This document shows positions 476-61,292 of a DNA stretch of 61,292 bases, in pieces (position 1 is the first letter of the stretch; each line of letters starts with the position of its first letter). A program made the translations under genes and the position numbers. This DNA is from Candidatus Saccharibacteria bacterium QS_5_54_17 (GTDB lineage Bacteria; Patescibacteriota; Saccharimonadia; QS-5-54-17), in NCBI GenBank assembly GCA_003022365.1, contig PXOU01000013.1:1-61292 (forward strand), in the 5' to 3' direction. Below the pieces are notes generated by a model. It made no database searches. It was not told the origin of the DNA and was given only the letters and a program-made list of their open reading frames with translations.

Positions 476-553
476 CCTTGGATTGGAGTCCGGGGTTCGG
501 CACTTAGCCCTACGGGCTATACTTGCTAAAATGAAGACATACACTGCTTACAC

Positions 554-4566: not shown

Positions 4567-4624
4567 ACAACCCGGGCTAATCGGCCGATAATCCCGGTGA
4601 TCATCCACCTAAGCGTTTATTATG

Positions 4625-5207: not shown

Positions 5208-5279
5208 GGGCGATACTCGCCAGCAGCGTTTCTATGTTGTCCTGTGGCTTATTGTATTACTTTTCCGAGCCGGGGCAGA

Positions 5280-7178: not shown

Positions 7179-7206
7179 CCGTTTGGGGTGATATAGAGAG
7201 GAAAGT

Positions 7207-8226: not shown

Positions 8227-8294
8227 TCCGGTCAGGGCTCGGTGCCGACCCGTGAGTTTCGGCCTTGGGGCGGGTATCCGCTATACTGGAGGGT

Positions 8295-11116: not shown

Positions 11117-11210
11117 GTTTTGCGTTCGGGGTGGGGGTGTATTCGAGGCATCAGAGTGCTCCAATAATATGCGCAATGTGAACAGCGGTGGGGTAGAATA
11201 GGAGGCGATT

Positions 11211-12266: not shown

Positions 12267-12282
12267 CCTCCGCCTCCCGGAA

Positions 12283-12612
12283 CTTAATGTGATAGAAACG
12301 TATTAAACCCGCTTTGTCACTGCCAAGACGTTATCCCGGACCCCGCCCGCACTGAGCAAGGTCGAAGTGATCCGGGATCAGTTTCGGAATCGTTTGGATC
12401 CTGAAATAAATTCAGGATGACAATTTTGCAGGAAGACCTCCGACCCCCTCCGTCATTCCGAATTTAGTTCGGAATCGTTTCTGCAATAGATCCTGAAACA
12501 AGCCTGCCTGTCGGCAGACAGGTTCAGGATGACAGGTTCAGAGCTTGTTGCTTCTCACTCCCTGTATGCTGTCTACTGTCTGCTGACTGCGTGTTGCTCT
12601 GCCGGGAGACGA
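12283..12612. repeat. Mosaic hairpin-repeat cluster 4
   Basis: The start module at 12283 lies 17 nt after the stop at 12266. Hairpin modules include ATTCCGAA/TTCGGAAT at 12455-12475. The end module is at 12547-12612. Confidence 0.85.
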
Positions 12613-12717
12613 GACGCCGGAATGGTAGCGGACGTCGATGTCTTGTATACTCACCCAAGAAGCACCTGATGCTCTCGGGGCTGTTTTTTAGCCAATGGCA
12701 AGGTTTGAGGAGTTACG

Positions 12718-15980: not shown

Positions 15981-16048
15981 AGCTTTTGTGTTTTTGGCGC
16001 CTCCGGGGCCAGAGACAGGTGAGGAAACGGTGCACTATATGGGAATAT

Positions 16049-16168
16049 GTCACTGCCGAAATGCATTCAGGACAGGCTTTGATTCCGATCCAATTGTCAT
16101 CCTGAAGACGTCATCCTGAACTTGTTTCAGGATCGGTTTCAGGATCTATTCCAGCAAATGTCATTCTC
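16049..16168. repeat. Mosaic hairpin-repeat cluster 5 (short)
   Basis: GTCACTGCCGAA..., TGTCATCCTGAAGACGTCATCCTGAACTTGTTTCAGGATCGGTTTCAGGATC. These modules are shared with the other clusters. Confidence 0.8.
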
Positions 16169-17027: not shown

Positions 17028-17206
17028 GATTCCGAAACAAGTTCGGAATGACGGAGAGGGGGTTCGCAGTGACAAAGAGGTTTTGCATTTTTCCACTTGC
17101 TTCTTACTTCCTGCTGCTTACTCCCTATTCTTTGTTCCCTGTCTACCGTCTACTGACTCCCACTTGCTGCTTACTTCTTACTTCTCACTCCTTGCTTCTT
17201 GTTCCC
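17028..17206. repeat. Mosaic hairpin-repeat cluster 6
   Basis: An ATTCCGAA/TTCGGAAT hairpin is followed by GTGACAAAGAGG and a long CT-rich tract. That tract includes the end-module core CCCTGTCTACCGTCT. Confidence 0.8.
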
Positions 17207-17277
17207 GCCGCCCGGCTGCACACCCGGCATGGATTGTGTCAAAATAGCCGGTGTCGCCTGACTAAGGAGAGATATTT

Positions 17278-21382: not shown

Positions 21383-21850
21383 GTGTCATTCCTGAATTGT
21401 CATTCCTGAAACAAGTTCAGGACAGGCTCTGAATTTATTTCAGGATCTATTTTAGGACCAGATTCCGAACCAAGTTCGGAATGACAAAAAGAGAGGAACC
21501 CCTCCTTTTGCAAGGACCGTCCTTGCAATACATAGAATTGCTGCATAAAGCTTTTATTGAGCCAATCTTGCAAGGACGGTCCTTGCAATTGCGTGTCACT
21601 TCTCCTGCTTGCTTCTTGTTCCTGTCATCCTGAATTTATTTCAGGATCTATTTTAGGATCAGATTCCGAACTAAGTTCGCAGTGGCGGAGGAGGGCTCGG
21701 AATGGCAAAGAAGCTTCGCATTTTCCCACTTACTGCTTACTCCTTGCTGCTTGCTTCCCGTTCTTTACTCCCTGTCTGCTGTCTGCTGTCTACCGCCTAC
21801 TGTTACCTGCTTACTCCTTACTTCCTGCTGCTTGCTTCCCGTTCTTTGCT
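21383..21850. repeat. Mosaic hairpin-repeat cluster 7
   Basis: Contains hairpin modules and the TTGCAAGGAC..GTCCTTGCAA pair (21508-21588) in reversed context. Long CT-rich tracts follow. The right end overlaps the last codons of rpsT. Confidence 0.85.
21508..21588. repeat. 21-bp inverted repeats flanking a 39-bp spacer (copy B; spacer inverted relative to its flanks)
   Basis: The flanks are the reverse complement of those at 51621-51702, but the spacer TACATAGAATTGCT..CCAATC is in the same absolute orientation. Confidence 0.85.
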
Positions 21851-22168
21851 GCCGGCGGTTTGTTTCTGACTGCTACCGGAAGTTGACTTGGTTTTGGTGG
21901 TGGAAGCGAACGCTTGCTCCAGTTGCCGGTTCAGCCGGGATTTTTTCCGGGCGGCGGTGTTCTTTTTGATGACACCCTTTTTGACCGCTTTATCGATGGC
22001 TTTCTGGGCGGTTTTGGCGTGCTCCCGGACCTGCTGTTGCTGCCCGGTGGCAATCGCGTCATAACTGTCCTTGATGGCTTGGCGCATGGCGCGCTTGGCG
22101 TTTAAGTTTTCCCGGTACCGGGAGGTATTCTGTCGCATCCGTTTTTGGGCGGATTTGATATTCGGCAT
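21818..22168 (-). CDS. rpsT: 30S ribosomal protein S20
   Basis: MPNIKSAQKRMRQN start. At 116 aa it is about 25-30 aa longer than usual. The last codons and the stop lie in an AAG-rich repeat module. Confidence 0.9.
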   Translation of the reverse strand: MPNIKSAQKRMRQNTSRYRENLNAKRAMRQAIKDSYDAIATGQQQQVREHAKTAQKAIDKAVKKGVIKKNTAARKKSRLNRQLEQAFASTTKTKSTSGSSQKQTAGSKEREASSRK

Positions 22169-25257: not shown

Positions 25258-25455
25258 CTTAATATGAAAGAAACGTATTGCACACCTCCTTGTTGTTTAC
25301 TGCAGGGGAGGTATTTAGTAAGCCGAAAGACGAGGCGGATGGGTCTTAGGAAGTGCCGATAAAAGCGTGTTATCCCTACCTCTCCGCTTCGTCACTGCGA
25401 ATTTATTTCGGAATCCGGTCTTAAAACAGATCCTGAAATAAATTCAGGATGACAA
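25258..25455. repeat. Mosaic hairpin-repeat cluster 8
   Basis: A start-module variant at 25258 lies 6 nt after the truB stop. It is followed by the CACCTCC..GGGAGG hairpin and ATCCTGAA/TTCAGGAT. Confidence 0.8.
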
Positions 25456-25557
25456 TGTAACCCGGCCACTCCCGTCGCCGAAAAGCTCATGCTTGCCGCT
25501 TTTGCACGTGCATGCTATTGTGCCCATTCATTCAAATCTGCTAATATACAGCTGAGT

Positions 25558-25824: not shown

Positions 25825-25832
25825 GGTGGATC

Positions 25833-26083
25833 GTCACTCTGAATTTGTTGGGGAATCGGTTCTGATTTTGAAACAGATCCGGAAACCGATCCTGAAACAA
25901 GCCTGCCTGCCGGCAGACAGGTTCAGGATGACATCTTCAGGATGAGGCGAACAAGAAGCAGGAAGTAAGAAGTAAGTAGGGAAATGCAAATCCTCTCTGT
26001 CACTGCGAACCCCCTCCATCACTCCGAAGACCCGGACCCCGCCCGCACTGAGCAAAGTCGAAGTGATCCGGGATCCTTTTCGG
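25833..26083. repeat. Mosaic hairpin-repeat cluster 9
   Basis: Contains the CCTGCCTGCCGGCAGACAGG palindrome, an AAG-rich tract, and the GGACCCCGCCCGCACTGAGCAAAGTCGAAGTGATCCGGGAT module. Confidence 0.85.
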
Positions 26084-28240: not shown

Positions 28241-28710
28241 CTATGCAATTTACAATTCACAGTTCACAATTCACAATGAATTTTCAATTTACAATAACAG
28301 ACCATGAAACAGGATAACTACGATTTAGAGGAGCGAATGTTAGATTTTGGAGCTAGAGTCGTTAAGCACTGTTCCGGACTTAGAGATTATGAAATGGTAA
28401 ATATTACAGCACAACTCATACGATCCGCTACCAGTATTGGTGCCAATTACTGTGAAGCCAATAATGCCGCGTCAAAGCAAGATTTCCGCAGCAAGATATT
28501 TATTGCCAAAAAGGAAGCTGCCGAAACCAAGTATTGGTTGAAGATGTTAAAACGCCTCGGGGACGAAAGCTCGGAAAGAGACGTGCTCGAACAGGAAAGT
28601 CAGGAGCTTTTGATGATACTTCAGAAAATAGTCAACACTATGAGACAGAAGTCTGCTAAGTGAAAATTGAGAATTTAATGAAAATTGTAAATTGGAAACT
28701 GTAAATTGAA
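28241..28710. mobile_element. Low-GC cassette carrying a four-helix-bundle gene, bracketed by inverted AT-rich 11-mers
   Basis: CAATTTACAAT occurs at 28246 and 28285. Its reverse complement ATTGTAAATTG is at 28684, with a partial copy at 28701. The interior is visibly AT-rich between the GC-rich pnp and UDG genes. Confidence 0.35.
28304..28663 (+). CDS. Four-helix-bundle protein (23S rRNA intervening-sequence protein family)
   Basis: 119 aa. QLIRSATSIGANYCEA...FIAKKEAAETKYWLKML matches the family signature. Confidence 0.8.
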   Translation: MKQDNYDLEERMLDFGARVVKHCSGLRDYEMVNITAQLIRSATSIGANYCEANNAASKQDFRSKIFIAKKEAAETKYWLKMLKRLGDESSERDVLEQESQELLMILQKIVNTMRQKSAK

Positions 28711-31440: not shown

Positions 31441-31732
31441 AAGTAAGCAGAAAGAAGTAAGAAGCAAGTGGGAGTCAGTAGTCAGGAGACGGTAGACGGT
31501 AGACAGGGAACAAAAATTAAGAAGCAAGCAGCAGGAAGTAAGAAGTAAGTTTCGGAATCGACTTTGATCCTGAAATAAATTCAGGATGACAATAGGGGAA
31601 GATCCTGAAACAAGCCTGCCTGTCGGCAGACAGGTTCAGGATGACATCATCTTCAGGAATGACATATTCAGCAATGATATTTCGCCTGGGTTTTTGTTGC
31701 CGGGTTTTGATAATAAGCCGGGAGACTATACA
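31441..31732. repeat. Mosaic hairpin-repeat cluster 10
   Basis: Begins at the rnj stop with AAG-rich tracts and a reversed end-module core (GGAGACGGTAGACGGTAGACAGGGAA). Hairpins follow. It ends ...GCCGGGAGACTATAC. Confidence 0.85.
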
Positions 31733-37587: not shown

Positions 37588-37628
37588 AAGGTGAGTTAAT
37601 TACAACTGATTTAATATTTCTCGCTTTA

Positions 37629-38057
37629 CTATTGCTCGCCATCTGCTCCGTTATCGTAATCAAGTAACAAGTCTTGTTTCATATCATCACGAAGTCCGAT
37701 GTTATCAGCCACTTTGGCGATAATGCCATCAAGTTTACGTGCACCATCTGGATCGTCGTTAACATACTGCTCAATATGCTCAGCAACACTCTCGACATCA
37801 ATATCTCTACCCACAAAGTACACCTCGCGCAATAACTCCATCTCCTCGTCGCTTAACTCCTCGAACGCTTCGGGGTGAAATTCGTACATAGTTAAGGCAA
37901 AGTTGTGTTGCTTTCCCAATGTCTCCAAAGTCTGCTTATTCATATCGTAATCATACTCTTCCATAGTAAAAGATTTGAGCAGTTTATAGTCAGGGGCGGA
38001 CGGGAGTTTAGAGGTTTGGTAATAATATCGAACTGTGGGACAACTCCCGTCCGCCAT
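37629..38057 (-). CDS. Strongly acidic hypothetical protein (142 aa)
   Basis: Asp/Glu-rich throughout (EEYDYDM, SDEEMELL, YVNDDPDG). It sits in a low-GC segment and is the second gene of a two-gene minus-strand unit. Confidence 0.5.
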   Translation of the reverse strand: MADGSCPTVRYYYQTSKLPSAPDYKLLKSFTMEEYDYDMNKQTLETLGKQHNFALTMYEFHPEAFEELSDEEMELLREVYFVGRDIDVESVAEHIEQYVNDDPDGARKLDGIIAKVADNIGLRDDMKQDLLLDYDNGADGEQ

Positions 38058-38082
38058 CCTGAGTGCTCAGGACTTGGTTGTG

Positions 38083-38286
38083 CTACTCCGGTGCGTGATC
38101 CTTGCTGACGGAAACTCCTCCGCCGGACCCCTTGGTGGCGACCCAGCTGTCCGAATGCATGCTTCCGTCCTGGCCGGGGTGGGGGTTGTTGTTGGCCATG
38201 CCTTCGCTAACCATGTGAACCGTGGTACCCGGCTCCTCGTCACGAAGGATCTGTCGCCCTGCCTCACGTGCTTGCTTTCGGTTCAT
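38083..38286 (-). CDS. Small hypothetical protein (67 aa)
   Basis: I take the start at the internal Met (MNRKQAREAGRQ...), which follows AAGGAG. The upstream ORF extension lacks an SD and has atypical composition. Confidence 0.45.
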   Translation of the reverse strand: MNRKQAREAGRQILRDEEPGTTVHMVSEGMANNNPHPGQDGSMHSDSWVATKGSGGGVSVSKDHAPE

Positions 38287-38419
38287 GGCAACTCCTTTGC
38301 CTTGACGGTGCCAAGGCGTAAGCGACGCGAGCGTACACAACCCTATTCGGTTGTAAAGTGCATAGCATCGATAGTCCTCGATGCTACTATTGAGTATAGC
38401 AAAGTTGTGAGTTGGTTTC

Positions 38420-38725
38420 AAAAATTGCTACCAAAAGCGCTACTTGGCGCAAAATTGCAAGGACGTTCCTTGCAAACGACTGTTCCTTGCAAACGACATG
38501 ATCCTGAAATAAATTCAGGATGACAATTCAGGGGTGACACTCCCCTCCGTCATTCCGAATTTAGTTCGGAATCGTTTCTGCAATAGATCCTGAAATAGAT
38601 CCTGAAACAAGTTCAGGATGACGTTTCTTCTTTGTCATTCCGAACTTGTTTCGGAATCGGCTCTGAATTTATTTCAGGAATGATATTCAGTCCGGTTTTT
38701 GTTGCCGGGTTTTGATAATGGACTA
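38420..38725. repeat. Mosaic hairpin-repeat cluster 11
   Basis: Contains a truncated spacer plus TTGCAAGGACGTTCCTTGCAA (38455-38475), ATCCTGAA/TTCAGGAT and ATTCCGAA/TTCGGAAT hairpins. It ends with a TTGTTGCCGGGTTTTGATAAT variant. Confidence 0.85.
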
Positions 38726-38775
38726 TGTGTGGTGTGGATCTTACGCATTTGGGGGTTTTGATTACCCGCCGAAAT

Positions 38776-40043: not shown

Positions 40044-40406
40044 CTTAATGTGACAGGAACTTATTAAACCATCTTTGTCATTCCGAATTTAGTTCGGAAT
40101 CGTTTGGATCCTGAAACAAGTTCAGGATGACAAGAGAGGAGGATCCTGAAATAAATTCAGGATGACAGGAGCAAGAAGCAGGAAGCAAGAAGCAAGAAGT
40201 AAGTGGAAAAATGCAAAGCCTCTCCGTCATTCCGAACTTGTTTCGGAATCCAATTCTGAAACCGATCCTGAAACTGATCCCGGATCACTTCGACCTTGTC
40301 CGTCCAAGGCGGACAGGCTCAGTGCGGGTGGGGTCATAGCCTGTCCTGAATTCATTTCAGCAGTGACATCTTCAGGGCCTGTCCTGAACTTGTTTCAGCA
40401 GTGACA
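40044..40406. repeat. Mosaic hairpin-repeat cluster 12
   Basis: Start module at 40044, then hairpins and an AAG-rich tract. A reversed CCCGGAT module with an inner hairpin lies at about 40277-40335. Confidence 0.85.
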
Positions 40407-40466
40407 TTTGCGTTGCGGGTTTGGGTTCCGGGATGGTACAGTGGACATTAATCATAAGAGTCATGT

Positions 40467-41285: not shown

Positions 41286-41374
41286 TCTTAAGCGAAAAAA
41301 AAGGGGGGGGCGGACCCCGGCGTGTAATCACCTAGGTGATGGCTGCTCGCGGCCGTGAAGCCACATGCCGGGGG

Positions 41375-41950
41375 CTTAGTGTGACAGAAACTTATTGAAC
41401 CCTCTTTGTCACTGCGAACTTGTTTCGGAATCCGGTTCTGAAATAGATCCTGAAACAAGTTCAGGATGACGGGAATAAGAAGCAATAAGTAAGGAGTAAG
41501 AAGTAAGCGGGAGACGTGATACGCAATTGCAAGGACGGTCCTTGCAAAAGGAGGGTCCTCTCTTTTTGTCACTGGGAATTTAGTTCGGAATCTAATTCTG
41601 TAATACAGAAACGATCCCGGATGGGAGTCCGGGATGACAGGAAGAGAGTGTCATTCCGGCCGCCGAGCCGGAATCCATGAAGCCGATATGGTTTGAAACA
41701 GATCCTGAAATAAATTCAGGATGACAATAGGGGAAGATCCTGAAACGGATCCTGAAACAAGCCTGCCTGCCGGCAGGCAGGTTCAGGATGACATCTTCAG
41801 GATGACGGATTTAGGTGTGAGGATTCTGAACCAAGTTCAGAATGACAATAGGGGAAAATCCTGAAATAAATTCAGGAATGACAGGTTCAGGGCCTGTTGC
41901 TTCTCACTCCCTGTCTACTGTCTGCGTGCTGCTGCCGGGAGGCTATCCGG
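41375..41950. repeat. Mosaic hairpin-repeat cluster 13
   Basis: Start module at 41375, a solo TTGCAAGGACGGTCCTTGCAA (41527-41547), and many hairpins. The end module at 41896-41950 abuts the stop codon of the convergent gene. Confidence 0.85.
41527..41547. repeat. Solo 21-bp palindrome (collapsed form of the palindrome-spacer-palindrome module)
   Basis: It has the same flanks (ACGCAA ... AAGGAGGG) as copies at 51621-51702 and 4832-4912. Only one palindrome is present and there is no spacer. Confidence 0.8.
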
Positions 41951-51424: not shown

Positions 51425-52232
51425 GCTTAGTCTGACAGAAACTTGTTGAACACCTCCCCGACACTGCGACCCCCCTATCTGTCATTCCGGCCGCCGAGCC
51501 GGAATCCATGAATCCGATATGATCCTGAAACAGATCCTGAAACAAGTTCAGGATGACATCTTCAGGATGACAGGAATAAGAAGCAAGCAGTAAGAAGTAA
51601 GCGGGAAACGTGACACGCAATTGCAAGGACCGTCCTTGCAATACATAAAATTGCTCCCATAAAGCTTTTGTTTAACCAATCTTGCAAGGACGGTCCTTGC
51701 AAAAGGAGGGTTTCCTCTCTTTTTGTCATTCCGGCCTCCGAGCCGGAATCCATGAATTCGATATGATCCTGAAACAGATCCTGAAATAAATTCAGGATGA
51801 CAACAGAGGAAGATCCTGAAACAAGCCTGCCTGCCGGCAGGCAGGTTCAGGATGACAGGCATAAGAAGCAAGCAGTAAGAAGTAAGTGAAAAAATGCAAA
51901 ACCTCTTTGTCATTCTGCCCCCCTCCGTCATTCCGAACTTGGTTCGGAATCATTTGGAGCCTGGAATAGATCCTGAAACAAGTTCAGGATGACAGGAATA
52001 AGAAGCAAGCAGTAAGAAGTAAGGAGCAAGTGGAAAAATGCAAAGTCTTTCTGTCACTGCGACCCTCCTCCGTCATTCCGAATTTAGTTCGGAATCCAAT
52101 TCTAAATAGATCTTGAAACCGATCCTGAACCAAGCCCGCCTGCCGGCAGGCAGGTTCAGACGGACATCTTCAGAGCCTGTTGCTTGTCACTCCCTGTCTA
52201 CTGTCTGTGTGCTGCTGCCGGGAGCTTCTACG
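51425..52232. repeat. Mosaic hairpin-repeat cluster 14 (largest)
   Basis: The start module at 51425 lies 20 nt after the pilC stop. More than 15 hairpin modules, three AAG-rich tracts and the palindrome pair at 51621-51702 follow. The end module is at 52179-52232. Confidence 0.9.
51621..51702. repeat. 21-bp inverted repeats flanking a 40-bp spacer (copy A)
   Basis: TTGCAAGGACCGTCCTTGCAA (51621-51641) and TTGCAAGGACGGTCCTTGCAA (51682-51702) bracket TACATAAAATTGCTCCC...CCAATC. Confidence 0.9.
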
Positions 52233-52236
52233 CCTG

Positions 52237-52266
52237 TTGACGCTTGGCACCCGATGCGGATACAAT
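52237..52266 (+). promoter_or_regulatory. Candidate sigma-70 promoter of the pilin operon
   Basis: TTGACG (52237-52242), an 18-nt spacer, then TACAAT (52261-52266). AAGGAGG (52291-52297) and the GTG start at 52306 lie downstream. Confidence 0.55.
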
Positions 52267-52872: not shown

Positions 52873-53577
52873 ATGAAACACATACCCCCCCGTAAGCAAT
52901 CCGGTTTCAGTGTTGTCGAGACCATAATAGTGGTGGCCATCGTCGGCTTGTTTACGGCGGTGCTCTTGGCTGCCGGTACCCAGAATATCCAGGTGGAACG
53001 GTTCAGCGGCTCCCTCCGGGATGTGGCCGACGCCTTCCGCAAGGGACAAAACGAGTCCTATTCCATCCAATCCGGTGAGTGCCCCCAAGACCGGGAGTGT
53101 TTCTGGCGGGGTACCTTGTTCGAATTTGAGACCAACACGCCCCGGGAATATAGGCGCTACCGGCTGCGGGGGAACGATTTGTCCGATTTCGCTGCCAACA
53201 GCGATCCCAAACGGGGTATTACCGGCAAAACCGCCAAACAAACCGTCAGTTTAACTGACCAGCAGATGAGGCTGCGCGGGATCGGTTTTAATTGTGAGGA
53301 GTCGGAATTCGGTTCGGGATTCAATGTCGAGTCTCATTGCCAGGATGACACCCAGCAATTATCAGTAGCCTTCCTGGCGCCGGACGGCCGGGCATACACG
53401 GCTGATGAAACAAAGACCAACGCCCAGCTTTCCACGTCAGCCAGTAACTCCAGCGAGCCGCCGCCTTACGCCGATCAGCGGCGGGTGACTCTCGTGGTGG
53501 AGAGTCTGGGCACGGACTTGACCGGGTACCTTACATTTAACCCCAAAAATGCTAATGTTGAGGTAGCAGTCTATTAA
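52873..53577 (+). CDS. Minor pilin (prepilin-type N-terminus)
   Basis: KQSG/FSVVETIIVVAIVGLF has Glu at +5. 234 aa. Confidence 0.75.
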   Translation: MKHIPPRKQSGFSVVETIIVVAIVGLFTAVLLAAGTQNIQVERFSGSLRDVADAFRKGQNESYSIQSGECPQDRECFWRGTLFEFETNTPREYRRYRLRGNDLSDFAANSDPKRGITGKTAKQTVSLTDQQMRLRGIGFNCEESEFGSGFNVESHCQDDTQQLSVAFLAPDGRAYTADETKTNAQLSTSASNSSEPPPYADQRRVTLVVESLGTDLTGYLTFNPKNANVEVAVY

Positions 53578-53579
53578 CT

Positions 53580-54173
53580 ATGACGCGGGTATATACCACA
53601 CAAACCGGATTGACGTTGGTAGAGGTAGTCGTAGCCATCGCCGTTTTGGCATTCGCCATGGCCGCGGCCGGGGCACTGGCGACCACGACGACTCGTTCCA
53701 GCACCGAAGGCGGCCGACGTAGCCAAGCGTCCACCCTGGCCACGCGGGAATCCGAATCTCTCCGGAGCCTACAGACAAGCATTCCCCAAGAGACCGAATA
53801 CGATACACTCTATGAGTACTTACAGGAAGAAGAAGCCAGGTCAACCGGCAGCGACTGTTTCCAGTTCGTTATGCGCCAAGACGGGCGCTCCTCGACCGGC
53901 TGGACGACTATTGCTCCGGATAGCCCGGATTCCCCCGTCCGGTTCGAAAAGGCCGATTTCGCCCGGGACCCGGATAAATATTTCGAAGGCTACCAGAATT
54001 TCAGCCGATTGATAACCGCCTGCCAATCAGAGGAATACAGCGTCGAAGAAGGATATCGGGACAGTAAGTACATTATCGATGTCGGCGTCCGGGTGACATG
54101 GCGGGAGGCCGGCGATGTGACCCGGGAAGTAAAGCTCCGTGATGTCTTAACCAACCCAGGGGTTCGCTCATGA
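53580..54173 (+). CDS. Minor pilin (PilV-like)
   Basis: TQTG/LTLVEVVVAIAVLAF has Glu at +5. 197 aa. Confidence 0.7.
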   Translation: MTRVYTTQTGLTLVEVVVAIAVLAFAMAAAGALATTTTRSSTEGGRRSQASTLATRESESLRSLQTSIPQETEYDTLYEYLQEEEARSTGSDCFQFVMRQDGRSSTGWTTIAPDSPDSPVRFEKADFARDPDKYFEGYQNFSRLITACQSEEYSVEEGYRDSKYIIDVGVRVTWREAGDVTREVKLRDVLTNPGVRS

Positions 54174-54709
54174 GGCAGGGGGGTTTTACCATCGTGGAAG
54201 TTATCATCGGTATGGCCATACTTTCCATAGCTATGCTGATAGCGGTCTTAGGTTTTACCACTATCGTGCGGCTGCAAGAGAAAGCCCAGACCGCCCAGAA
54301 TATCCAGCAGAACGCCCGCTATATTGCCGAAGCCATCAACCGGGATGTCCGGAGCTCGGACAATTACCAATTGCGTAAAGATGAGAGGCGTACGCAACTA
54401 TTACTTCCCAACAGCATCGAGGGGGATTCGATGGTTCGCTACACCTATAAGGCCGAGACCGGCAATTTCTACCGATACACCTGTGAGCCGGCGTTCTGCC
54501 AAAGGCGCAACAACGACACGGAAGGCGAGAATCTAGTCCCCGAAGATATGCAGATTACCGAAATGGAGATGCGGAAGCTCAATCAAGATTCGGCCGGTAA
54601 TTCGCCGCTGCAGGTCTACATCACCGCTACCCAGCGGGAAAACCTGGAGGCAACCGATCCCTACGCCTATGAATATGACGCAACAACTATAGTGGTGCCT
54701 AGGAGATGA
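54170..54709 (+). CDS. Minor pilin (PilW-like)
   Basis: MRQGG/FTIVEVIIGMAILSI has Glu at +5. 179 aa, overlapping both neighbours. Confidence 0.7.
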   Translation: MRQGGFTIVEVIIGMAILSIAMLIAVLGFTTIVRLQEKAQTAQNIQQNARYIAEAINRDVRSSDNYQLRKDERRTQLLLPNSIEGDSMVRYTYKAETGNFYRYTCEPAFCQRRNNDTEGENLVPEDMQITEMEMRKLNQDSAGNSPLQVYITATQRENLEATDPYAYEYDATTIVVPRR

Positions 54710-55893
54710 AACATATGATGACCCCACACCGGATACCAACAAGAATTATTGCTTTCCTTCGCCGAACAGTAGGAGGGGAAGCCCGGGGAGCTTGCGCCGG
54801 CAGCGTTGCCTTGTACCTGGTTTTGATTACCTCGCTTTTGCTGATGACCACTACCATGCTGGGTGCTCGGCTGTCGGTCAGTGAATTACGCCAGTCCAGC
54901 GATATTGATCAATCCAACGGCGCCTATTATGCCGCTGAAGCCGGGGTGGAAGAGGCCAGCCGCCGATTGGATATTAATGAAGACCAACATGCCAGCCTCC
55001 AAGAAATATTCCCCGAACAATATGATGGCGATGATCTACACGGCGACCGGGCGGTACTCCTAGACAGCGACGGTGAGCGCGACATCGGCGGGAGTTTCGG
55101 TATTGAACATGATAACCGGAGCGAGCACGGGGACATCAAAGGCCGTTTGGCTTGGCGGCAACGCCGGGTTTACGAGGAGCCCCGCACTCCCCACGGCACC
55201 CTGGTCAAAGACGAAACGGTAGAGCTGGACGCCACCGACTTACGCCGTGAATGCCCCGGCAGGGACGATTATGCCGGCAAAGACGGCAAAGACTGTGACG
55301 GCCAAGATATATTCACCCGTCTGGATGCTATCCAGTTGTGCTGGGCGCCGCCGCCCGAGGATGTCGAGATGGAGTTCACCGTGCTTTCCTATCCCGAAGA
55401 CAGTCCCGACCGCGTTGATACCGATAAGTACATCACCAACGGAGTGAGTGGTTTTGCCCGGGGCGATCACAGCCGCTTGGAAAACGCTTCGGGCCAAAGG
55501 GATAGTTACCAATATTGCGCCGAAGTCCGGCGTCTGGACTCCAGTCGACGGTATATCGTCCGGGTACGCCCCCTTTTCCCGCGACTCGATCCACCGGAAG
55601 AAGGGCGTGACGCCTCTGAATACCGGGTTGATTACAAGACCAGCCTGATAGATGAAAATTCCGGCCAGCCAAATGATTTATTCATACCCGATAACACCGT
55701 GCTGATAGATGTGGTCGGCCAATCCGGGGATGTTCGCCGCCGCATTATCGCCCGGAAACAGCGCCAGGGGCGCATCCTGGGTATTTTCGATTACGTATTA
55801 TACTCGGGTAGTGATAATCTGCCCTTGTGTAAAGTCGGGGTGCAGCAATCTGACGTCCAATATAATACCGATGAGGAATGCCAAGTAGAATGA
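54706..55893 (+). CDS. PilX-like pilus assembly protein
   Basis: Hydrophobic N-terminus without Glu at +5 (GSVALYLVLITSLLLMTTTML), followed by NGAYYAAEAGVEEA, which is typical of the PilX N-terminal domain. 395 aa. Confidence 0.6.
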   Translation: MKHMMTPHRIPTRIIAFLRRTVGGEARGACAGSVALYLVLITSLLLMTTTMLGARLSVSELRQSSDIDQSNGAYYAAEAGVEEASRRLDINEDQHASLQEIFPEQYDGDDLHGDRAVLLDSDGERDIGGSFGIEHDNRSEHGDIKGRLAWRQRRVYEEPRTPHGTLVKDETVELDATDLRRECPGRDDYAGKDGKDCDGQDIFTRLDAIQLCWAPPPEDVEMEFTVLSYPEDSPDRVDTDKYITNGVSGFARGDHSRLENASGQRDSYQYCAEVRRLDSSRRYIVRVRPLFPRLDPPEEGRDASEYRVDYKTSLIDENSGQPNDLFIPDNTVLIDVVGQSGDVRRRIIARKQRQGRILGIFDYVLYSGSDNLPLCKVGVQQSDVQYNTDEECQVE

Positions 55894-55914
55894 TGAACCT
55901 CAACGGACGGATGG

Positions 55915-56607
55915 GTGCCCGTGTTCCAGCATCCGGATGAGGCCCATCAAGTCAGTCAGCCGGATGTCAGTAGTTTCGCCCGCGGCTACCAACGCGGGCT
56001 CGCCTGGGGGACTGCTCGGCGGGAGCCGATTGTCAAAACCGCCCGTTGGTCAGGCTTAGTTGCCGCGGCCATCATTTTAGCAGCAATGGTGGGGGTGTAC
56101 GGGTTCCGGTGGCAGAATGATGTTACCTACGGGGTCTCCCATGTGCTGCCGCTGCCGGCGGCAACCGTGGATAATGCCCCGATCTGGTATCGGGATTATG
56201 CCGCCCGGCTCCGCCACGCGGAAGCGGTCTATGCCCGGCAATCCAGCGGCACCGATGGGGAAGAGGTAACCGGCTTGGAAGGATATGCCATGGATCGGGC
56301 CGTGTACGATCACGTGCTCCGGGACATTGCCGACAGTCGTGACATCCGGATACGCCAATCACCCGTCCAGCAACGGTTCCAGCGGCTATATACCGGGGAT
56401 ACGGCCCGCGCCCGGCTGGCCCGGGCACCCGGGGTATCTGCTGACATACTCAAGCGGGATATCGCCAACCGGCTCTTACGCCAGGAGTTGAAGGCCCGTC
56501 TTACGGAGGCCGGTGAATTAGGGGAGCAGGACATAAACACCTGGATGTGTCAACGCGTACAACAGCGCGATGTCACTTATTGGTTACCCGGGATAACACC
56601 ATCATGA
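55915..56607 (+). CDS. N-terminally anchored hypothetical protein closing the pilin operon (230 aa)
   Basis: GTG start (uncertain), one TM (LVAAAIILAAMVGVYG), then a helical soluble domain. Confidence 0.45.
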   Translation: MPVFQHPDEAHQVSQPDVSSFARGYQRGLAWGTARREPIVKTARWSGLVAAAIILAAMVGVYGFRWQNDVTYGVSHVLPLPAATVDNAPIWYRDYAARLRHAEAVYARQSSGTDGEEVTGLEGYAMDRAVYDHVLRDIADSRDIRIRQSPVQQRFQRLYTGDTARARLARAPGVSADILKRDIANRLLRQELKARLTEAGELGEQDINTWMCQRVQQRDVTYWLPGITPS

Positions 56608-56609
56608 TA

Positions 56610-56965
56610 CTTAGTCTGACAGAAACTTATTAAACACCTCCTTGCTGTTTACTACAGGGAGGTAGTCAGCAGACAGTAGACGGTATACAGGAAACAGGAA
56701 GTAAGCAGCAAGAAGTAAGAAGTAAGTGGAAATAAAAGTGTGTTATTCCTGCCTCCTCTCTTTGTCATTCCGAACTTGTTTCGGAATCCGGCTCTGAAAC
56801 AGATCCTGAAATAAATTCAGGATGACAAGAGAGGACGATCCTGAAACAGAATCCTGAAACTGATCCCGGATCGGGGTCCGGGATGACATCTTCAGGATGA
56901 CATTCAGAGCCTGTTGCTTCTCACTCCCTGTCTGCTGTCTGCGTGCTGCTGCGGGAGACTATACC
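56610..56965. repeat. Mosaic hairpin-repeat cluster 15
   Basis: The start module at 56610 lies 3 nt after the stop at 56607. It is followed by the CACCTCC..GGGAGG hairpin, AAG-rich tracts and further hairpins. The end module is at 56913-56965. Confidence 0.85.
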
Positions 56966-56971
56966 ATGATA

Positions 56972-57000
56972 TTGCACACATACCGCCCATGGTTTATAGT
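56972..57000 (+). promoter_or_regulatory. Candidate sigma-70 promoter of pilM-pilB-pilT (near-leaderless)
   Basis: TTGCAC (56972-56977), a 17-nt spacer, then TATAGT (56995-57000). The ATG at 57009 begins 8 nt after the -10 box. Confidence 0.55.
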
Positions 57001-57008
57001 GTGGTCAA

Positions 57009-58046
57009 ATGCCTATTTTAGACAAAAACACAGACTACTTCGGACTTGATATCGGGACGACCGGCGTCCGGCTGGTGCAGCTGAAGCCGGGCAGTTCCGC
57101 CCCCAGTCTGGTAACTTATGGCGCTAAACCAACCCCGGCCGATCTTGCCAGCAGCGACTCCGAGGTGGATAAGAACAAACTGGCCGATATCATCAAACAG
57201 CTCAAAAGCGAAGCCAAGATTTCCGCCGACCAGGTGGTGACCGCCTTACCGTCCCAGCATACCTTTACCACGGTCATTAATACGCCCAAGCTCAACAATA
57301 AGGAATTGGAAAAGTCCATCAACCTCCAGGCTGATCAGTACGTGCCCATGAAAGTCGAGGACGCCAAGTTGGATTGGCATGTCATCGATCCCGACAAGGG
57401 CGAGAATGAGATGTCAGTACTGCTGGTGGCTGCGCCGAAGAATGTGGTGAATAAATATTTGTCAGTGGTAGAGAAGGCCGATCTGAACCTGCTAGCACTG
57501 GAAATCAACGCCCTGGCGCTGGCCAGAAGCGTAGTTAGCACGGGGGATTTGCCGGTGGTGGTCGTTGACTTGGGAAGTACCAGTAGTGAGATTACCATCA
57601 TTTCCGGCCGGGTGCCGCACTTGGTACGCTCAGTGGACATCGGCGGCAATACGCTGGTCCGCTCGGTCGAGCAAAACCTGAATGTGGACACCGAACAAGC
57701 GCAACAGTTCCTGCAAAAGTTCGGCGTCACCCAAACCAAATTGGAAGGGCAGGTGCTGAAAGCTATACAGGGTTCGCTTGATAATCTCATGAACGAGATT
57801 TCCAAGTCGGTCAAATACTTTACGTCCCAGAATCAGGAGGCGCAGGTTGAAAAAGCGATCCTGACCGGCGGCCCGACCGCCTTGCCGGAAATGCCGTCCT
57901 ACGCTGCCAATTCGCTCAATCTGCCGGTAGAAATCGCCAATCCGTGGGTTAACGTCAGTTACCCGGCCACCCAACAGGAAACACTTATGAATCAATCTTT
58001 GCACTTTGCGGTGGCCGTTGGGTTGGCGCAGCGATCTTTCGTCTAG
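57009..58046 (+). CDS. pilM: Type IV pilus assembly ATPase-fold protein PilM
   Basis: Actin-like fold motifs are YFGLDIGTTGVRLVQL, VVVDLGSTSSEITI and ILTGGPTALPEM. Confidence 0.85.
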   Translation: MPILDKNTDYFGLDIGTTGVRLVQLKPGSSAPSLVTYGAKPTPADLASSDSEVDKNKLADIIKQLKSEAKISADQVVTALPSQHTFTTVINTPKLNNKELEKSINLQADQYVPMKVEDAKLDWHVIDPDKGENEMSVLLVAAPKNVVNKYLSVVEKADLNLLALEINALALARSVVSTGDLPVVVVDLGSTSSEITIISGRVPHLVRSVDIGGNTLVRSVEQNLNVDTEQAQQFLQKFGVTQTKLEGQVLKAIQGSLDNLMNEISKSVKYFTSQNQEAQVEKAILTGGPTALPEMPSYAANSLNLPVEIANPWVNVSYPATQQETLMNQSLHFAVAVGLAQRSFV

Positions 58047-58090
58047 GCTTCGTTGCGGGAAGATAACAACCATCACGTTGGGAGCATGAT

Positions 58091-59881
58091 GTGTTAGTCG
58101 GTGAATCCCAGAACACATTCGAACGGCTGCTGGTCGAAGAAGGATATCTCAGTGAGGAGCAGTTAAAAAGTCTGCGCCAGGAGTCGGCTGAGCAGAATAA
58201 GTCCATCATCAATCTGATCTCCGACCGGGGTTTGATTGACAAAGAAGATATCGTCAAAACGGTCGCCAAAGCCGAGAACGTACCCTATGCTGACCTGCAC
58301 GGTTTCAAAGCCGACGAAGAGACGCTGAACTTCATCCCCAAGGATCTGGCCAAGAATTACCAAGTGGTTCCCATCGGCATGATGAATGGCCAACTGGCGG
58401 TGGGTATGGTGGACCCCACCAACTTACAGGCGGTCGATTTCATCACCCGCCGGATCGGCCAGGCCATCACTCCTCACATGGTGTCTTCGGAAAGCGTGGA
58501 GGTGGTACTGGGCCAGTACGGGGCCGACGTTTCCGAGGAAGTATCCTCAGTGGTGGGCTCGGCTGAGCAGTTTGTCCAGTCCGAAGAACAACAGCAAAAG
58601 CAGCAACAACAGGAGGGGGGAGATGTCCAGAACCTGGTCCAGGACGCGCCCATCACCCGGGCGCTGAATACCATTCTGGATTACGCGGCCCGGCTGGAGG
58701 CATCCGACATTCACATCGAACCCAGACCGGAAAACGTCAAGATCCGTTTCCGTATCGACGGCATCCTCAAAGAGATTATGACCCTTCCCAAAGGGGTGGA
58801 AGCAGCACTGGTCTCCCGGGTCAAGATCCTCTCCAGTCTGAAGATTGATGAACACCGCCAACCACAGGACGGTGAATTTCAGATGCAACACGAGGGCCGT
58901 GACATCGACCTGCGAATCGCCATCGCGCCCATCGTCTGGGGCGAACAAGTCGTCATTCGGCTGCTTGATAAGGATTCCAGCCTGCTGGATATCGATTCAC
59001 TGGGCTACAAAGGCCGGGCCCGGCGGTTGATCCATGAAGGATTACAGAAACCCTACGGCATGACCCTTTCGACCGGCCCGACCGGTTCCGGCAAGTCGAC
59101 CACCTTGTATGCCGGCATTAACACCATCCACGACCCGGCCATCAATATCATTACCCTGGAGGATCCGGTGGAGTACAAAATGAGCGGCATCAACCAGATC
59201 CAGATCAACAGCCAAATCGGCCTGACGTTTGCCAGCGGCTTACGTTCGGTGTTGCGCCAGGATCCGGACGTGGTCATGGTGGGGGAGATCCGGGACGGGG
59301 AGACGGCCGATCTGGCGGTCCAGGCCGCGCTGACCGGCCACATCGTCCTCTCCACCTTGCACACCAACTCAGCGGCCGGCGTGCTGCCGCGGCTGATCGA
59401 TATGGGGATCGAACCGTTCCTGGTCAGCTCGGTCATCAATACGGTTATCGGCCAGCGGTTAGTCCGGCGCATTTGCGATAAATGCGCCAGGGAGCGGGAA
59501 TCCACGGAGGCGGAGAACCATTCCATCCAGGAGGTTCTGGGGAGCATTCTGCCCGAGTCGGGCGAAGCCAGCCAGGAGCTCAAAGAGGATATCGGCTACG
59601 AGGTATTGCCGGGTTTGGACCAAAACGCTTATACTTTATACCAAGGAAGCGGATGCAAGGACTGCAATGGGGAGGGGTACAAAGGACGCACGGGGATTTT
59701 CGAGGTCTTTAGCATTACTGATGAGATGGAGAAAATCCTGGTGAGTGGTATGACAAGCGGGCAAGTGCAGGAGCAAGCCCAGAAAGACGGCATGATCACT
59801 ATGCGGCAAGATGGATATCTAAAAGCGTTGAACGGCGTCACGACCTTGGACGAAGTCGCCCGTGTCGCCTCGGACGCCTAA
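58091..59881 (+). CDS. pilB: Type IV pilus extension ATPase PilB (GspE family)
   Basis: N-terminal T2SSE_N-like domain, Walker A GPTGSGKST, Asp box, Walker B VVMVGEIRD, His box TGHIVLSTLHTN, and a tetracysteine motif (CDKC...CKDC). Confidence 0.9.
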   Translation: MLVGESQNTFERLLVEEGYLSEEQLKSLRQESAEQNKSIINLISDRGLIDKEDIVKTVAKAENVPYADLHGFKADEETLNFIPKDLAKNYQVVPIGMMNGQLAVGMVDPTNLQAVDFITRRIGQAITPHMVSSESVEVVLGQYGADVSEEVSSVVGSAEQFVQSEEQQQKQQQQEGGDVQNLVQDAPITRALNTILDYAARLEASDIHIEPRPENVKIRFRIDGILKEIMTLPKGVEAALVSRVKILSSLKIDEHRQPQDGEFQMQHEGRDIDLRIAIAPIVWGEQVVIRLLDKDSSLLDIDSLGYKGRARRLIHEGLQKPYGMTLSTGPTGSGKSTTLYAGINTIHDPAINIITLEDPVEYKMSGINQIQINSQIGLTFASGLRSVLRQDPDVVMVGEIRDGETADLAVQAALTGHIVLSTLHTNSAAGVLPRLIDMGIEPFLVSSVINTVIGQRLVRRICDKCARERESTEAENHSIQEVLGSILPESGEASQELKEDIGYEVLPGLDQNAYTLYQGSGCKDCNGEGYKGRTGIFEVFSITDEMEKILVSGMTSGQVQEQAQKDGMITMRQDGYLKALNGVTTLDEVARVASDA

Positions 59882-59896
59882 TGGGAGGAGGGCGAT

Positions 59897-60976
59897 ATGG
59901 CTGAAGAAGAACCAACCGGTTTGCGGATCGAACATTTATTGCAAGAGGTAGTTGATAAAGACGCCTCCGACTTGCACTTGCAGGTGGGGTTACGGCCGGT
60001 GCTGCGGATTGATGGCGCCTTAACCCCGGCACATGACGCGCCGGTGTTGGATGAGAAAATGGTGGAGAATCTGATAAATGCCATCGTCGACGACGAACAA
60101 AAACAGATTCTGGAAAAAGATAAGGAGCTTGATTTTTCCTTCGCGTTCGGCGATCTGGGGCGTTTTCGCGTCAACGCCTACCACGAGCGGGGCAATCTGG
60201 CTGCCGCGCTCCGTTTAATCCCCAGTAACATACGCAGCATCGAAGATCTGGGACTCCCCAAAGTCATGAACAGTTTTGCCGAATATCCGCGGGGATTGGT
60301 CCTGGTTACCGGCCCGACCGGCTCCGGAAAATCGACCACGCTGGCGGCGATGATTGACAAAATCAACGAAGAACGGGCGACCCACATCATTACCATTGAA
60401 GACCCCATCGAGTACACCCACCAGAATAAACAGGCGGTGGTGTCCCAACGGGAAGTACACTATGACACCTACTCGTTTGCCACTTCCTTACGCTCGACAT
60501 TGCGCCAGGATCCGGACGTGGTACTGGTCGGGGAAATGCGGGATCTGGAAACCATCGCCTCGGCCATTACCATCGCCGAGACCGGACATTTGGTCTTCGC
60601 CACCCTGCACACCAATTCGGCTGCCCAAAGCGTGGATCGTATGGTCGATGTCTTCCCGCCGCACCAGCAGCAACAGATCCGGGTCCAGCTGGCGGCTATC
60701 ATCCAGGGAGTATGTTCGCAGCGGTTAGTACCGGCCATCGGCGGCGGCCGGCTGCCGGCGGTGGAAATCATGGCGGCCAACCCGGCCGTGCGGAACATCA
60801 TCCGCGAAGGTAAGACTCACCAATTGGATTCGGCCATTCAGACCGGCGGGGAACAAGGGATGCAGTCCATGGACAAAACCTTAGTCAACATGATCCGCAG
60901 CGGTAAGATTACCTACGAAGAAGCCAAAAACTACGCGGTCGACCTGGAAGAAGTTGACCGCTTGATGCGCAATTAA
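59897..60976 (+). CDS. pilT: Twitching motility (retraction) ATPase PilT
   Basis: Contains ASDLHLQVG, GPTGSGKSTT, DVVLVGEMRD, TGHLVFATLHTN and AIRNIIREGK. 359 aa. Confidence 0.9.
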   Translation: MAEEEPTGLRIEHLLQEVVDKDASDLHLQVGLRPVLRIDGALTPAHDAPVLDEKMVENLINAIVDDEQKQILEKDKELDFSFAFGDLGRFRVNAYHERGNLAAALRLIPSNIRSIEDLGLPKVMNSFAEYPRGLVLVTGPTGSGKSTTLAAMIDKINEERATHIITIEDPIEYTHQNKQAVVSQREVHYDTYSFATSLRSTLRQDPDVVLVGEMRDLETIASAITIAETGHLVFATLHTNSAAQSVDRMVDVFPPHQQQQIRVQLAAIIQGVCSQRLVPAIGGGRLPAVEIMAANPAVRNIIREGKTHQLDSAIQTGGEQGMQSMDKTLVNMIRSGKITYEEAKNYAVDLEEVDRLMRN

Positions 60977-61037
60977 CTTGACGGGCAATTGACCCAGGAA
61001 TGGAGGTGGGGCATCCGGTGTTGCTCGCCTGGGCGTA

Positions 61038-61185
61038 GCCAATTTAGTTCGGAACTGGCTCTGCAATAGATCCTGAAACGGATCCTGAAACAAGTTCAGG
61101 ATGACAAAGAGGATTGGCATTTTTCACTTACTCCTTACTTCCTGTTCCCTGTCTGCTGTCTGCGTACTGCTGCCGGGAGACTGTA
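61038..61185. repeat. Mosaic hairpin-repeat cluster 16
   Basis: An AATTTAGTTCGGAA module is followed by ATCCTGAA/TTCAGGAT, GACAAAGAGG and a CT-rich tract. An end-module core ...CTGCTGCCGGGAGACTGTAC closes the cluster. Confidence 0.8.
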
Positions 61186-61189
61186 CGCG

Positions 61190-61286
61190 CCGGTGCACTA
61201 GTTCAGACACATCCCGTACACATTGAGCTTCTGAAAAGGAGGCTCCATGAAGTACGGTATATCCATGCAAACCTATGGAACCGTCG
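61190..61286. repeat. Right arm of the window-spanning inverted duplication (partner 1-97)
   Basis: See the feature at 1-97. The mismatches are at 61192, 61233 and 61260 by my alignment. Confidence 0.9.
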
Positions 61287-61292
61287 TTCCCG
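61247..61292 (+). CDS. 5' end of an unidentified gene running off the right edge (MKYGISMQTYGTVVP...)
   Basis: ATG at 61247 follows AAAGGAGG. It is a paralog of the minus-strand gene start at 1-40, with one amino-acid difference in 13. Confidence 0.5.
   Translation, partial: MKYGISMQTYGTVVP

Follow-up and report, generated by a model that had tools for sequence, protein, structure and literature searches.

Why should clusters of intergenic repeats have a fixed beginning and a fixed end around a variable middle? The question is raised by a 61,292-nucleotide stretch of Candidatus Saccharibacteria bacterium QS_5_54_17 (assembly GCA_003022365.1, contig PXOU01000013.1, positions 1 to 61,292; hereafter, the window), in which the spacer between the type IV pilus genes pilC and pilA holds a cluster (the focal cluster) that opens with a start module (S), continues with hairpin modules, and closes with an end module (E). 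A first-pass annotation had compared this layout, which recurs across the window, with boxA-(boxB)n-boxC, and had proposed that it reflects either directional insertion or growth, or a directional function such as a terminator or insulator followed by a promoter-proximal element. The evidence presented here makes it very probable that each S...E cluster is a non-autonomous derivative of an insertion sequence (IS) of the IS481 family, similar to a MITE (miniature inverted-repeat transposable element), which is loaded with hairpins of the repetitive extragenic palindrome (REP) type. The clusters would be polar because S and E are the non-identical left and right terminal repeats of such an element.

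The window is a chromosomal stretch of a Saccharibacteria bacterium, a member of the candidate phyla radiation (CPR), and its genes, nearly all on the plus strand, are housekeeping genes and genes of the type IV pilus. The repeats form 16 clusters, which amount to 5,718 nt, or 9.3% of the window. They are no assembly artefact, because an independent contig from ENA is 100% identical to window 53033-61292, including two of the clusters. In the module map, S comes first and E last, and between them lie 3 to ~20 internal modules of at least eight types in varying order, in agreement with the first-pass description of internal hairpins that vary in number and order. The S...E units measure 334-807 bp.

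For comparison, among the species representatives of the genome collection the nearest is a metagenome-assembled genome of an uncultured member of Ca. Saccharibacteria, in which PilC and PolA are 78% identical. Closer relatives are two NCBI contigs with proteins named Ca. Saccharibacteria bacterium SW_7_54_9 and QS_8_54_8, as well as contigs from JGI samples 3300046054 and 3300046060 and from ENA assemblies. Comparison contigs are referred to by L numbers; L209 is GCA_003022325.1 (named Ca. Saccharibacteria SW_7_54_9), L210 is ENA ERZ27230168, and L217 is named QS_8_54_8.

The S pattern, CTTARTSTGACAGAAACTTRTTRAAC, with up to three mismatches has five matches in the window (12283, 40044, 41375, 51426, and 56610), all on the plus strand, where none is expected from shuffled sequences. 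Two divergent copies are still recognisable, at 25258 with six mismatches and at 3393 with a 1-nt deletion, which gives seven copies in total, all on the plus strand; scanning of the minus strand of the window at up to eight mismatches revealed no S-like sequence. These results bear out the seven sites at which a start module had been reported, with the correction that the focal copy begins at 51426, one base after the 51425 first given. At 3393, 12283, 25258, 41375, 51426, and 56610, S follows a plus-strand stop codon by 10, 16, 5, 89, 20, and 2 nt, respectively, equal within one base to the distances in the first-pass annotation, and the copy at 40044 lies in a divergent spacer upstream of the minus-strand gene ychF. 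In their exact form, S and the core of E are lineage-specific: the exact S pattern had no match in the genome contigs or in the metagenome contigs, and the E core had none in the genome contigs. A looser S pattern gave 17 matches in the metagenome contigs, 15 of which were chance matches, and the remaining two (L222 and L233) led to the IS described below.

For the end module, a 30-nt core has six matches in the window (3685, 5141, 12547, 41896, 52179, and 56913), again all on the plus strand with none expected, and a partial copy lies at 61135-61187. The terminal 16-mer of E, GCCGGGAGACTATACG, was found with up to three mismatches at 3730, 5193, 12601, 31717, 41934, 52217, 56950, and 61172, all on the plus strand and none on the minus strand, and the corresponding right termini of the units are 3745, 5208, 12616, 31732, 41949, 52232, 56965, and 61187, respectively. 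The sites at which an end module had been said to close the clusters, always in the plus orientation, therefore held, although the exact ends were slightly off and the right-end remnants at 31691-31732 and 38714-38732 had been overlooked. Five of the eight E ends are followed, after 43-105 nt, by a plus-strand gene, and these genes are the ones already listed (rhodanese, polA, pilA, pilM, and the gene at the window edge); two of the eight abut the 3' end of minus-strand open reading frames (ORFs) in convergent spacers. Most of the 60-nt end module is an inverted, pyrimidine-rich copy of the internal heptamer arrays.

The modules can be traced to a 987-bp IS with a DDE transposase of 302-316 amino acids, which is present at many sites in other Saccharimonadales contigs. 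The transposase matches Pfam rve_3 (E = 7e-9), rve, and HTH_23, and among the NCBIfam profiles it fits IS481 best (E = 5.7e-42, covering positions 5-283 of 284), with 144 bits against a curated cut-off of 224. NCBI gives the name 'IS481 family transposase [Ca. Saccharimonadales]' to a homologue with 71% identity, and there are hundreds of homologues, several of them named from Ca. Saccharimonadales. The identical transposase is carried by many ~1-kb contigs, as a multicopy IS would give, and ten copies of the IS share the constant ends CGTACTGTGACACGACATATTGAACACC ... GTTCAATAAGTTTCTGTCACAGTAAG, with different flanks. The element has imperfect inverted repeats of ~27 nt and 6-bp target duplications: GTATAC surrounds one copy (L242), and AACCGA, GAGTTG, and TTTGGG pair across contigs. 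Members of the IS481 family in ISfinder are 950-1300 bp long and make target duplications of 4-15 bp, ranges into which both values fall. The pairing of flanks across contigs, seen in L239, L240, L244, L245, and L237, suggests either that IS copies have recombined or that the assembly is chimeric across a multicopy IS.

One end of this IS, CTTACTGTGACAGAAACTTATTGAACAC, which overlaps the transposase stop codon, is identical to S at 41375 in 25 of 26 positions, and the end of a second IS variant (L246), CTTAATGTGACAG, equals the first 13 nt of the S variant found at 3393, at 40044, and in L214. By this homology, S is assigned as the left terminal inverted repeat of an IS481-family IS. The right end is connected through a graded series, which starts with the IS itself (GGTGTTCAATATGTCGTGTCACAGTACG; terminus ...TCGTGTCACAGTACG) and passes through L214 (GGTGGTCAATATGTCGTGTCAC, 21/22 identical to the IS), L215 (GGTGTTCAACATATCGCGAGACTATAC; terminus ...TCGCGAGACTATAC), and window 31691-31732 (GATAATAAGCCGGGAGACTATACA) to E of the window (GCCGGGAGACTATACG). 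Linked to the IS end via these intermediates, the last 13-16 nt of E are identified as the decayed right terminal repeat. A search for a terminal inverted repeat between S and E within three units yielded nothing notable: with the inner part of the repeat gone from most E copies, only a short stretch (TAGTCT) still matches; the inverted-repeat relation becomes evident only via the IS and the fuller ends in relatives.

The insertion of a whole unit is best seen at the junction between the SurA-like gene and pilM. The window reads ...ACCATC-ATGATA-(356 bp, S to E)-ATGATA-TTGCACAC..., and L209 and L210, whose flanks are ~95% identical, read ...ACCATC-ATGATA-TTGCACAC..., an exact empty site with one ATGATA (ACCATCATGATATTGCACAC). 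Four more distant relatives (L211-L213 and L121) are also empty at this site. Perfect 6-bp duplications flank the units at 12283 (CCGGAA), 56610 (ATGATA), and L214 12632 (CGCCGG). They are 6 bp, as for the IS, because the terminal base is assigned to the element by homology to the IS end; a duplication of 7 bp had been considered and was revised on these grounds, the terminal G/C belonging to the element. A retroelement-like reading, with 5' truncation and variable duplications, was likewise dropped, because truncation affects either end and the duplications turn out to be 6 bp long.

Further sites differ between the window and its relatives. In L214, a complete unit at 12632-12937 has CGCCGG on both sides and a right junction equivalent to window 61187; in the window copy, at 61040-61187, a deletion at an AATT microhomology has removed the left part. 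L215 and L218 have a 55-nt spacer without the unit at 31441-31732, and the right junction of this unit falls exactly at the end of E2, the terminal part of E. The unit at 25258-25459 is absent in L218, which has 21 nt of other sequence instead; in the 78% relative, the truB-rpsO spacer can be compared in part only, owing to a masked run of N (L129 20849-20946). The focal cluster, 51426-52232, lies between the pilC stop codon and the pilA promoter, where L121 and L211, which are empty at both pilus sites, have spacers of 72 and 96 nt, respectively, with the same promoter. Pfam scans of ~45 window ORFs and a tblastn search with the IS transposase over the whole window found no transposase. These results show that the units insert whole, at least some of them with a 6-bp duplication, that they are polymorphic among close relatives, and that they encode no transposase. 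Directional insertion, the first of the possibilities raised for this layout, is therefore borne out by the empty sites and duplications, with the S/E-bounded clusters as discrete polar units. The properties by which MITEs are recognised were found here as shortness without a transposase, termini that match an IS, a duplication of IS length (three complete units have no clean one), and exact empty sites.

In addition, the comparisons with L214, L217, and L218 show that the units are remodelled after insertion. At the 56610 site, L214 has S and the same ATGATA duplication, with a different interior and a fuller IS repeat as the right end. At the 3393-3745 site, L217 has the same ends and a replaced interior (144 nt, compared with 197 nt in the window), and the rpsO-pnp cluster is partly inverted in L218. 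At the 41375 site, L215 has S, a different interior, and no E. At the focal site, the closer relatives L214 and L247 have different, shorter clusters without S. At the 40044-40410 site, L215 has 1.9 kb of different content (8018-9942) with three small ORFs, one with an HTH_38 domain only; this ORF (9266-9787), beside the cluster, was considered as a transposase and dropped, because it has the helix-turn-helix domain only. Remodelling of the hairpin-rich interior would explain why the same insertion differs between close relatives and why truncated units without S or E accumulate.

The interior consists largely of hairpins with an unpaired tag, 38 of which were found in the window, 10 with CGTC and 28 with TGTC. 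All 38 stems are 8 bp, and the second base is T in every one (the first base, A, was fixed by the search pattern); the loops are of 5 nt in 31 and of 6 nt in 7, and CCA is the commonest tail (8/38). By definition, the CGTC-tagged REPs have an unpaired CGTC or TGTC tag, an 8-9-bp stem whose first bases are AT, a 4-5-nt loop, and a short tail that is often CCA (Di Nocera et al. 2013, PMC3733652). Judged by sequence and predicted pairing, the window hairpins fit this superfamily. They are mostly arranged as inverted doublets, in which a TCCGAA-stem hairpin with the tag on the left is followed by a CCTGAA-stem hairpin with the tag on the right, and 29 doublets share the polarity of their cluster, against 4 of the opposite polarity. 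Between the doublets lie purine-rich arrays of period 7 (AAGNAAG) and a few other palindromes. Long stretches are collinear between units at unrelated sites, as in 25258-25455 and 56610-56828 (82-84% identity), and the module runs K-k-A-B and C-B-D recur among the units. The 127-amino-acid ORF inside the focal cluster had no homologue in the protein collection, and searches against Rfam (at the gathering threshold for the whole window and at an E-value threshold for the focal cluster) returned only tRNA-Ser and spurious miRNA-like hairpin matches.

Other palindromes are nested in the loops of REP hairpins at 51812-51857, 12493-12534, 4700-4765, and 12333-12380. In these, a CCTGAA hairpin carries CCTGCCTGCCGGCAGGCAGG inserted after CAAG, and the ATCCCGGA hairpin carries an insert of 24-30 nt in either orientation; comparable loop insertions occur in other phyla (L044, L069). 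One 25-nt hairpin, GATCCTGAAAYAARTTCAGGATGAC, was found exactly in more than 119 loci of the genome contigs, in Bacteroidota, Sphingomonadales, many CPR groups, Treponema, and others. There it mostly forms one arm of an inverted doublet whose partner stem covaries with it, and it adjoins period-7 arrays in L044, L067, and L086. Across 80 other Saccharibacteria polA loci (1.48 Mb), no REP hairpin was found, compared with 31 in the window by the same pattern, indicating a lineage-specific expansion.

Where the IS has its transposase gene, the units have a variable mosaic of CGTC/TGTC REP doublets, heptamer arrays, and a few palindromes. The observations suggest the following course of events. 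An IS copy that is intact and lies elsewhere in the genome would provide the transposase in trans, and the enzyme would recognise both ends. The unit would enter the short spacer that separates a stop codon from the following promoter, possibly because in a compact genome such spacers are the only places where an insertion survives, and the interior would then be reworked by recombination, inversion, and deletion between its many similar hairpins. Several findings weigh against this account or limit it. Three of the five complete window units (3393, 41375, and 51426) have no clean 6-bp duplication, and the focal unit is flanked only by a 5-nt repeat, GCCTG, one base out of register. Of the right repeat, E retains just ~13-16 nt, which agree with the IS terminus at 8/13 positions, and the IS transposase, being below the curated IS481 cut-off, would be a divergent member of the family. 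The 61-kb window has no intact IS or transposase; the intact copies come from other samples, so that a partner in the same genome is assumed. Simple transposition would not predict the uniform orientation, considered below, and the data are compatible both with the transposition of loaded units and with a minimal element that was filled later in place.

The last point leads to a possible alternative, which we consider doubtful but worth weighing, namely that only a minimal MITE of ~90 bp, comprising S, a hairpin (T), and the right terminal inverted repeat (IRR), transposed, and that each site subsequently acquired its interior through independent REP-doublet insertions or gene conversion. In that case, the layout would record the growth of a founder from within and not the transport of cargo. 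Larger units do contain minimal S-T-IRR modules (at 12632-12700 in L214 and, on the minus strand, at 6611-6700 in L215), the nested palindromes show insertion into existing modules, one and the same ATGATA insertion has different interiors in the window and L214, and the difference between L217 and the window in the 3393 unit is confined to its middle. Growth at each site does not account for the long collinear stretches and module runs at unrelated sites, and the window showed no minimal S-T-IRR element standing by itself. In L214 and L215, units of the form S-T-IRR-REPs-IRR look like two elements that bracket and mobilise a segment, and suggest that REP arrays were captured between two minimal elements. 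A further, tentative model would be that pairs of minimal IS481-derived MITEs bracket CGTC REP/heptamer arrays and move them to new intergenic sites by their outermost IS ends, with the uniform orientation caused by strand-specific, replication-coupled insertion or by selection on the 3' untranslated regions thereby created.

As for that orientation, the ~10 units with S and/or IRR in the window all point in the plus direction (p ~0.002 under random orientation, if the units are independent). The plus-strand bias is real, and within the window it is inseparable from the direction of transcription and replication, because nearly all genes are on the plus strand and the GC skew is uniformly positive, its cumulative value climbing across the whole window. 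In L215, one S-bearing unit lies on the minus strand, directly downstream of the minus-strand ychF. The window cluster in the same convergent spacer, 38455-38732, has the plus orientation, with the minus-strand ychF at its right; at its left it overlaps the end of a plus-strand ORF without a family match (38035-38523), and small minus-strand ORFs lie further left. The first-pass statement that all modules are oriented like the genes holds for S and E and has to be qualified for three clusters of internal modules without S or E (16040-16160, 17028-17220, and 21385-21860), which are reversed, two of them between plus-strand genes.

If the units instead were regulatory, S and the hairpins would terminate or insulate the upstream transcript, E would serve as a promoter-proximal element for the downstream gene, and the layout would be kept by selection. 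The placement of six of the seven S copies 2-89 nt after a plus-strand stop codon and of five of the eight E ends shortly before a plus-strand gene, with S and E always co-oriented with the genes, is what such a function would lead one to expect, and BOX elements can modulate the expression of neighbouring genes in pneumococcus (PMC3049150); a position <20 bp after upstream ORFs is, for its part, known for REP-type repeats (PMC3733652). However, S has no G+C-rich hairpin followed by a run of T, terminator-like sites are not enriched (8 found, 6.3 expected), and within the focal cluster the plus strand has a single one, a weak 5-bp stem in module k. Lying outside E, the pilA promoter (TTGACG-18-TACAAT) occurs as well in L121, L211, L214, and L247, where the unit is absent or a different one is present. 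The units are absent at orthologous sites down to ~95% identity, where the native promoter and spacer are intact, and the spacers at these sites in relatives are only ~40-100 nt and mostly taken by promoters. Two E ends face minus-strand ORFs. The predicted RNA folding energies, summed over 15 clusters, are -1877 kcal/mol for the sense and -1911 kcal/mol for the antisense strand; the two strands thus fold equally, so that an RNA-level reason for the polarity is unsupported. Together with the homology of S and E to IS ends, these results make a regulatory origin improbable, and neither the terminator or insulator followed by a promoter-proximal element nor a directional regulatory function in general, as first proposed, is sustained.

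Finally, the clusters might be a mosaic of the type of the bacterial or neisserial interspersed mosaic elements (BIMEs and NIMEs), built by a REP-specific system, such as a tyrosine transposase of the RAYT (REP-associated tyrosine transposase) type, or by recombination, with S and E as accessory motifs unrelated to an IS. REP mosaics with extra motifs are indeed known in E. coli and Neisseria, and several clusters of the window lack S or E. On the other hand, S is nearly identical to an IS481-family end and the 6-bp duplications are those of that IS, whereas HUH transposition, of the RAYT or IS200 type, is not known to make a target duplication. The tag is (C/T)GTC, not GTAG, and profile scans of the window ORFs found no Y1/HUH gene. 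While the hairpins meet the definition of CGTC-tagged REPs, these REPs have no known dedicated transposase (PMC3733652). A mosaic of this origin is thus highly improbable, and derivation from an IS481-family element remains the preferred explanation of the S...E clusters.

Among known systems, the units resemble IS-derived MITEs, such as the Correia elements in Neisseria and RUP/IS630-Spn1 in pneumococcus, in that they are short (0.33-0.8 kb here), non-coding, and intergenic, have ends that match an IS and a duplication of the parent's length, and are polymorphic between close relatives. They differ in that the interior is a variable REP/heptamer mosaic and not a collapsed IS remnant, in that the right repeat is cut to ~13-16 nt in most copies, and in their Saccharibacteria (CPR) host. 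The putative parent, like IS481-family IS in general, has a single DDE (rve) transposase, a length of ~1 kb, inverted repeats, and a short duplication, whereas the window units encode nothing. The comparison with the pneumococcal BOX proved apt, since both have fixed, non-identical termini around variable internal modules and are intergenic, highly structured, and variable in length, and since a resemblance to IS inverted repeats, those of ISSpn2, has been proposed for the BOX termini as well (PMC3049150). The resemblance is architectural only: the interior here is heterogeneous, with no single repeated boxB, and the link to an IS is strong for S, whereas the similarity between BOX and ISSpn2 has been called low (PMC3049150).

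E. coli BIMEs are mosaics of oppositely oriented REPs with other conserved motifs between them and specific outer motifs at the flanks. In contrast to the units described here, their REPs are of the GTAG type and linked to RAYTs, without IS-type ends or target duplications. The CGTC-tagged REPs (Di Nocera et al. 2013), which include the Neisseria dRS3/NIMEs and Rickettsia RPE-4/6, are alike in tag, stem, loop, and CCA tail, in their arrangement mostly as inverted doublets, in clustering with other repeats as in NIMEs, and in their position near the 3' ends of ORFs. Those surveyed are mainly alphaproteobacterial and without a transposase (Di Nocera et al. 2013, PMC3733652), whereas the ones in the window lie inside units bounded by IS ends in a CPR bacterium and also include 6-nt loops and nested insertions. 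In kind, then, the units are ordinary MITEs, and what is new to us is the combination, CGTC REP/heptamer arrays bounded and moved by IS481-type ends in a CPR genome.

For annotators, the fixed start and end of a cluster are transposon ends and should not be read as terminators or promoters. The repeat expansion occurs in a small CPR genome, a type usually thought streamlined. Insertions that differ between organisms ~95% identical in the flanks are useful as strain markers and a likely cause of fragmented assemblies. If REP arrays do travel as cargo between IS ends, this would speak to how CGTC REPs without a transposase spread, a question that arises from Di Nocera et al. 2013, and a vehicle made of a MITE pair, if real, would explain why they make up ~9% of this region in one Saccharibacteria lineage and none of 80 other loci. 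An intact IS with matching ends makes the mechanism open to direct experiment. The features of the window are listed in Table 1.

Table 1. Parts of the focal unit and other repeat units and clusters in the window (IRL, left terminal inverted repeat; IRR, right terminal inverted repeat)
Feature	Position	Strand	Remarks
Focal unit, S	51426-51451	+	IRL of an IS481-family-derived element; S pattern with 0 mismatches; 3 mismatches in 28 nt to IS end CTTACTGTGACAGAAACTTATTGAACAC
Focal unit, variable interior	51452-52166	+	CGTC/TGTC REP hairpins of types A, B, C, D; AAGNAAG purine-rich heptamer arrays; GTGGAAAAATGCAAAG linker; two TTGCAAGGACNGTCCTTGCAA palindromes
Focal unit, E1	52167-52216	+	Pyrimidine-rich heptamer array (TTGCTTC / CTGTCTA), inverted copy of the purine-rich arrays; core of the end module first noted
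Focal unit, E2 (GCCGGGAGCTTCTACG)	52217-52232	+	Decayed IRR; right terminus of unit
pilA promoter-like site, TTGACG-18-TACAAT	52237-52266	+	Native; immediately outside focal unit
Complete S...E unit, 356 bp	56610-56965	+	ATGATA duplication 56604-56609 / 56966-56971; best-documented insertion
Complete S...E unit, 334 bp	12283-12616	+	Perfect CCGGAA duplication 12277-12282 / 12617-12622
Complete S...E unit, PIG-L / rhodanese spacer	3393-3745	+	No clean duplication
Unit with degenerate S (CCTAAGCG..TTTATTATGCC) and intact E	4608-5208	+	
S...E unit, convergent TPR gene / CWB2 gene spacer	41375-41949	+	
3'-truncated unit: S, T hairpin, REP doublet, no E	25258-25459	+	Between truB and rpsO; homologous to 56610-56828
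Unit with S, no E, divergent ychF / TPR gene spacer	40044-40410	+	
5'-truncated unit, heptamer arrays from RNase J stop codon to fuller IRR TTTTTGTTGCCGGGTTTTGATAATAAGCCGGGAGACTATACA	31441-31732	+	
5'-deleted unit with intact E	61040-61187	+	
Cluster ending in degenerate IRR remnant GATAATGGACTATGTG	38455-38732	+	
Cluster of internal modules, no S/E	21385-21860	-	Downstream of rpsT (minus strand)
Reversed cluster, no S/E	17028-17220	-	Between two plus-strand genes
Small reversed REP cluster, no S/E	16040-16160	-	Upstream of plus-strand gene
Cluster without S/E	115-500	+	Between left edge gene (minus strand) and tRNA-Ser
Cluster without S/E, rpsO-pnp spacer	25830-26062	+	

Other features of the window were seen alongside the clusters. 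At 28304-28663, a gene for a 23S rRNA intervening-sequence protein lies between two heptamer arrays, CAATTCA x4.6 (28246-28277) and AAATTGT x3.9 (28682-28708). Around 28246-28708, 537 nt of the window stand against 269 nt in the relative L218, with no alignment across the gene, and this region may be another small mobile cassette. At 41286-41374, between the poly-G that follows the TPR gene and S, the window has ~65 extra nt bracketed by G runs, which L215 does not have and which may be a further small insertion.

A small gene without known function on the minus strand (37629-38057) is found at another locus and in the opposite orientation in L218, window 37626-37957 being 94% identical to L218 708-1039. 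At 10034-12266, the window has two tandem sigma-70 genes, compared with one in L129, and 6237-8226 holds a tandem pair of paralogous genes that are 78-80% identical in DNA. The two ends of the window, 1-97 and 61190-61292, are inverted copies with 97% identity, each covering the start of one gene and ~60 nt upstream of it, and both also have part of an upstream heptamer/linker module in common.

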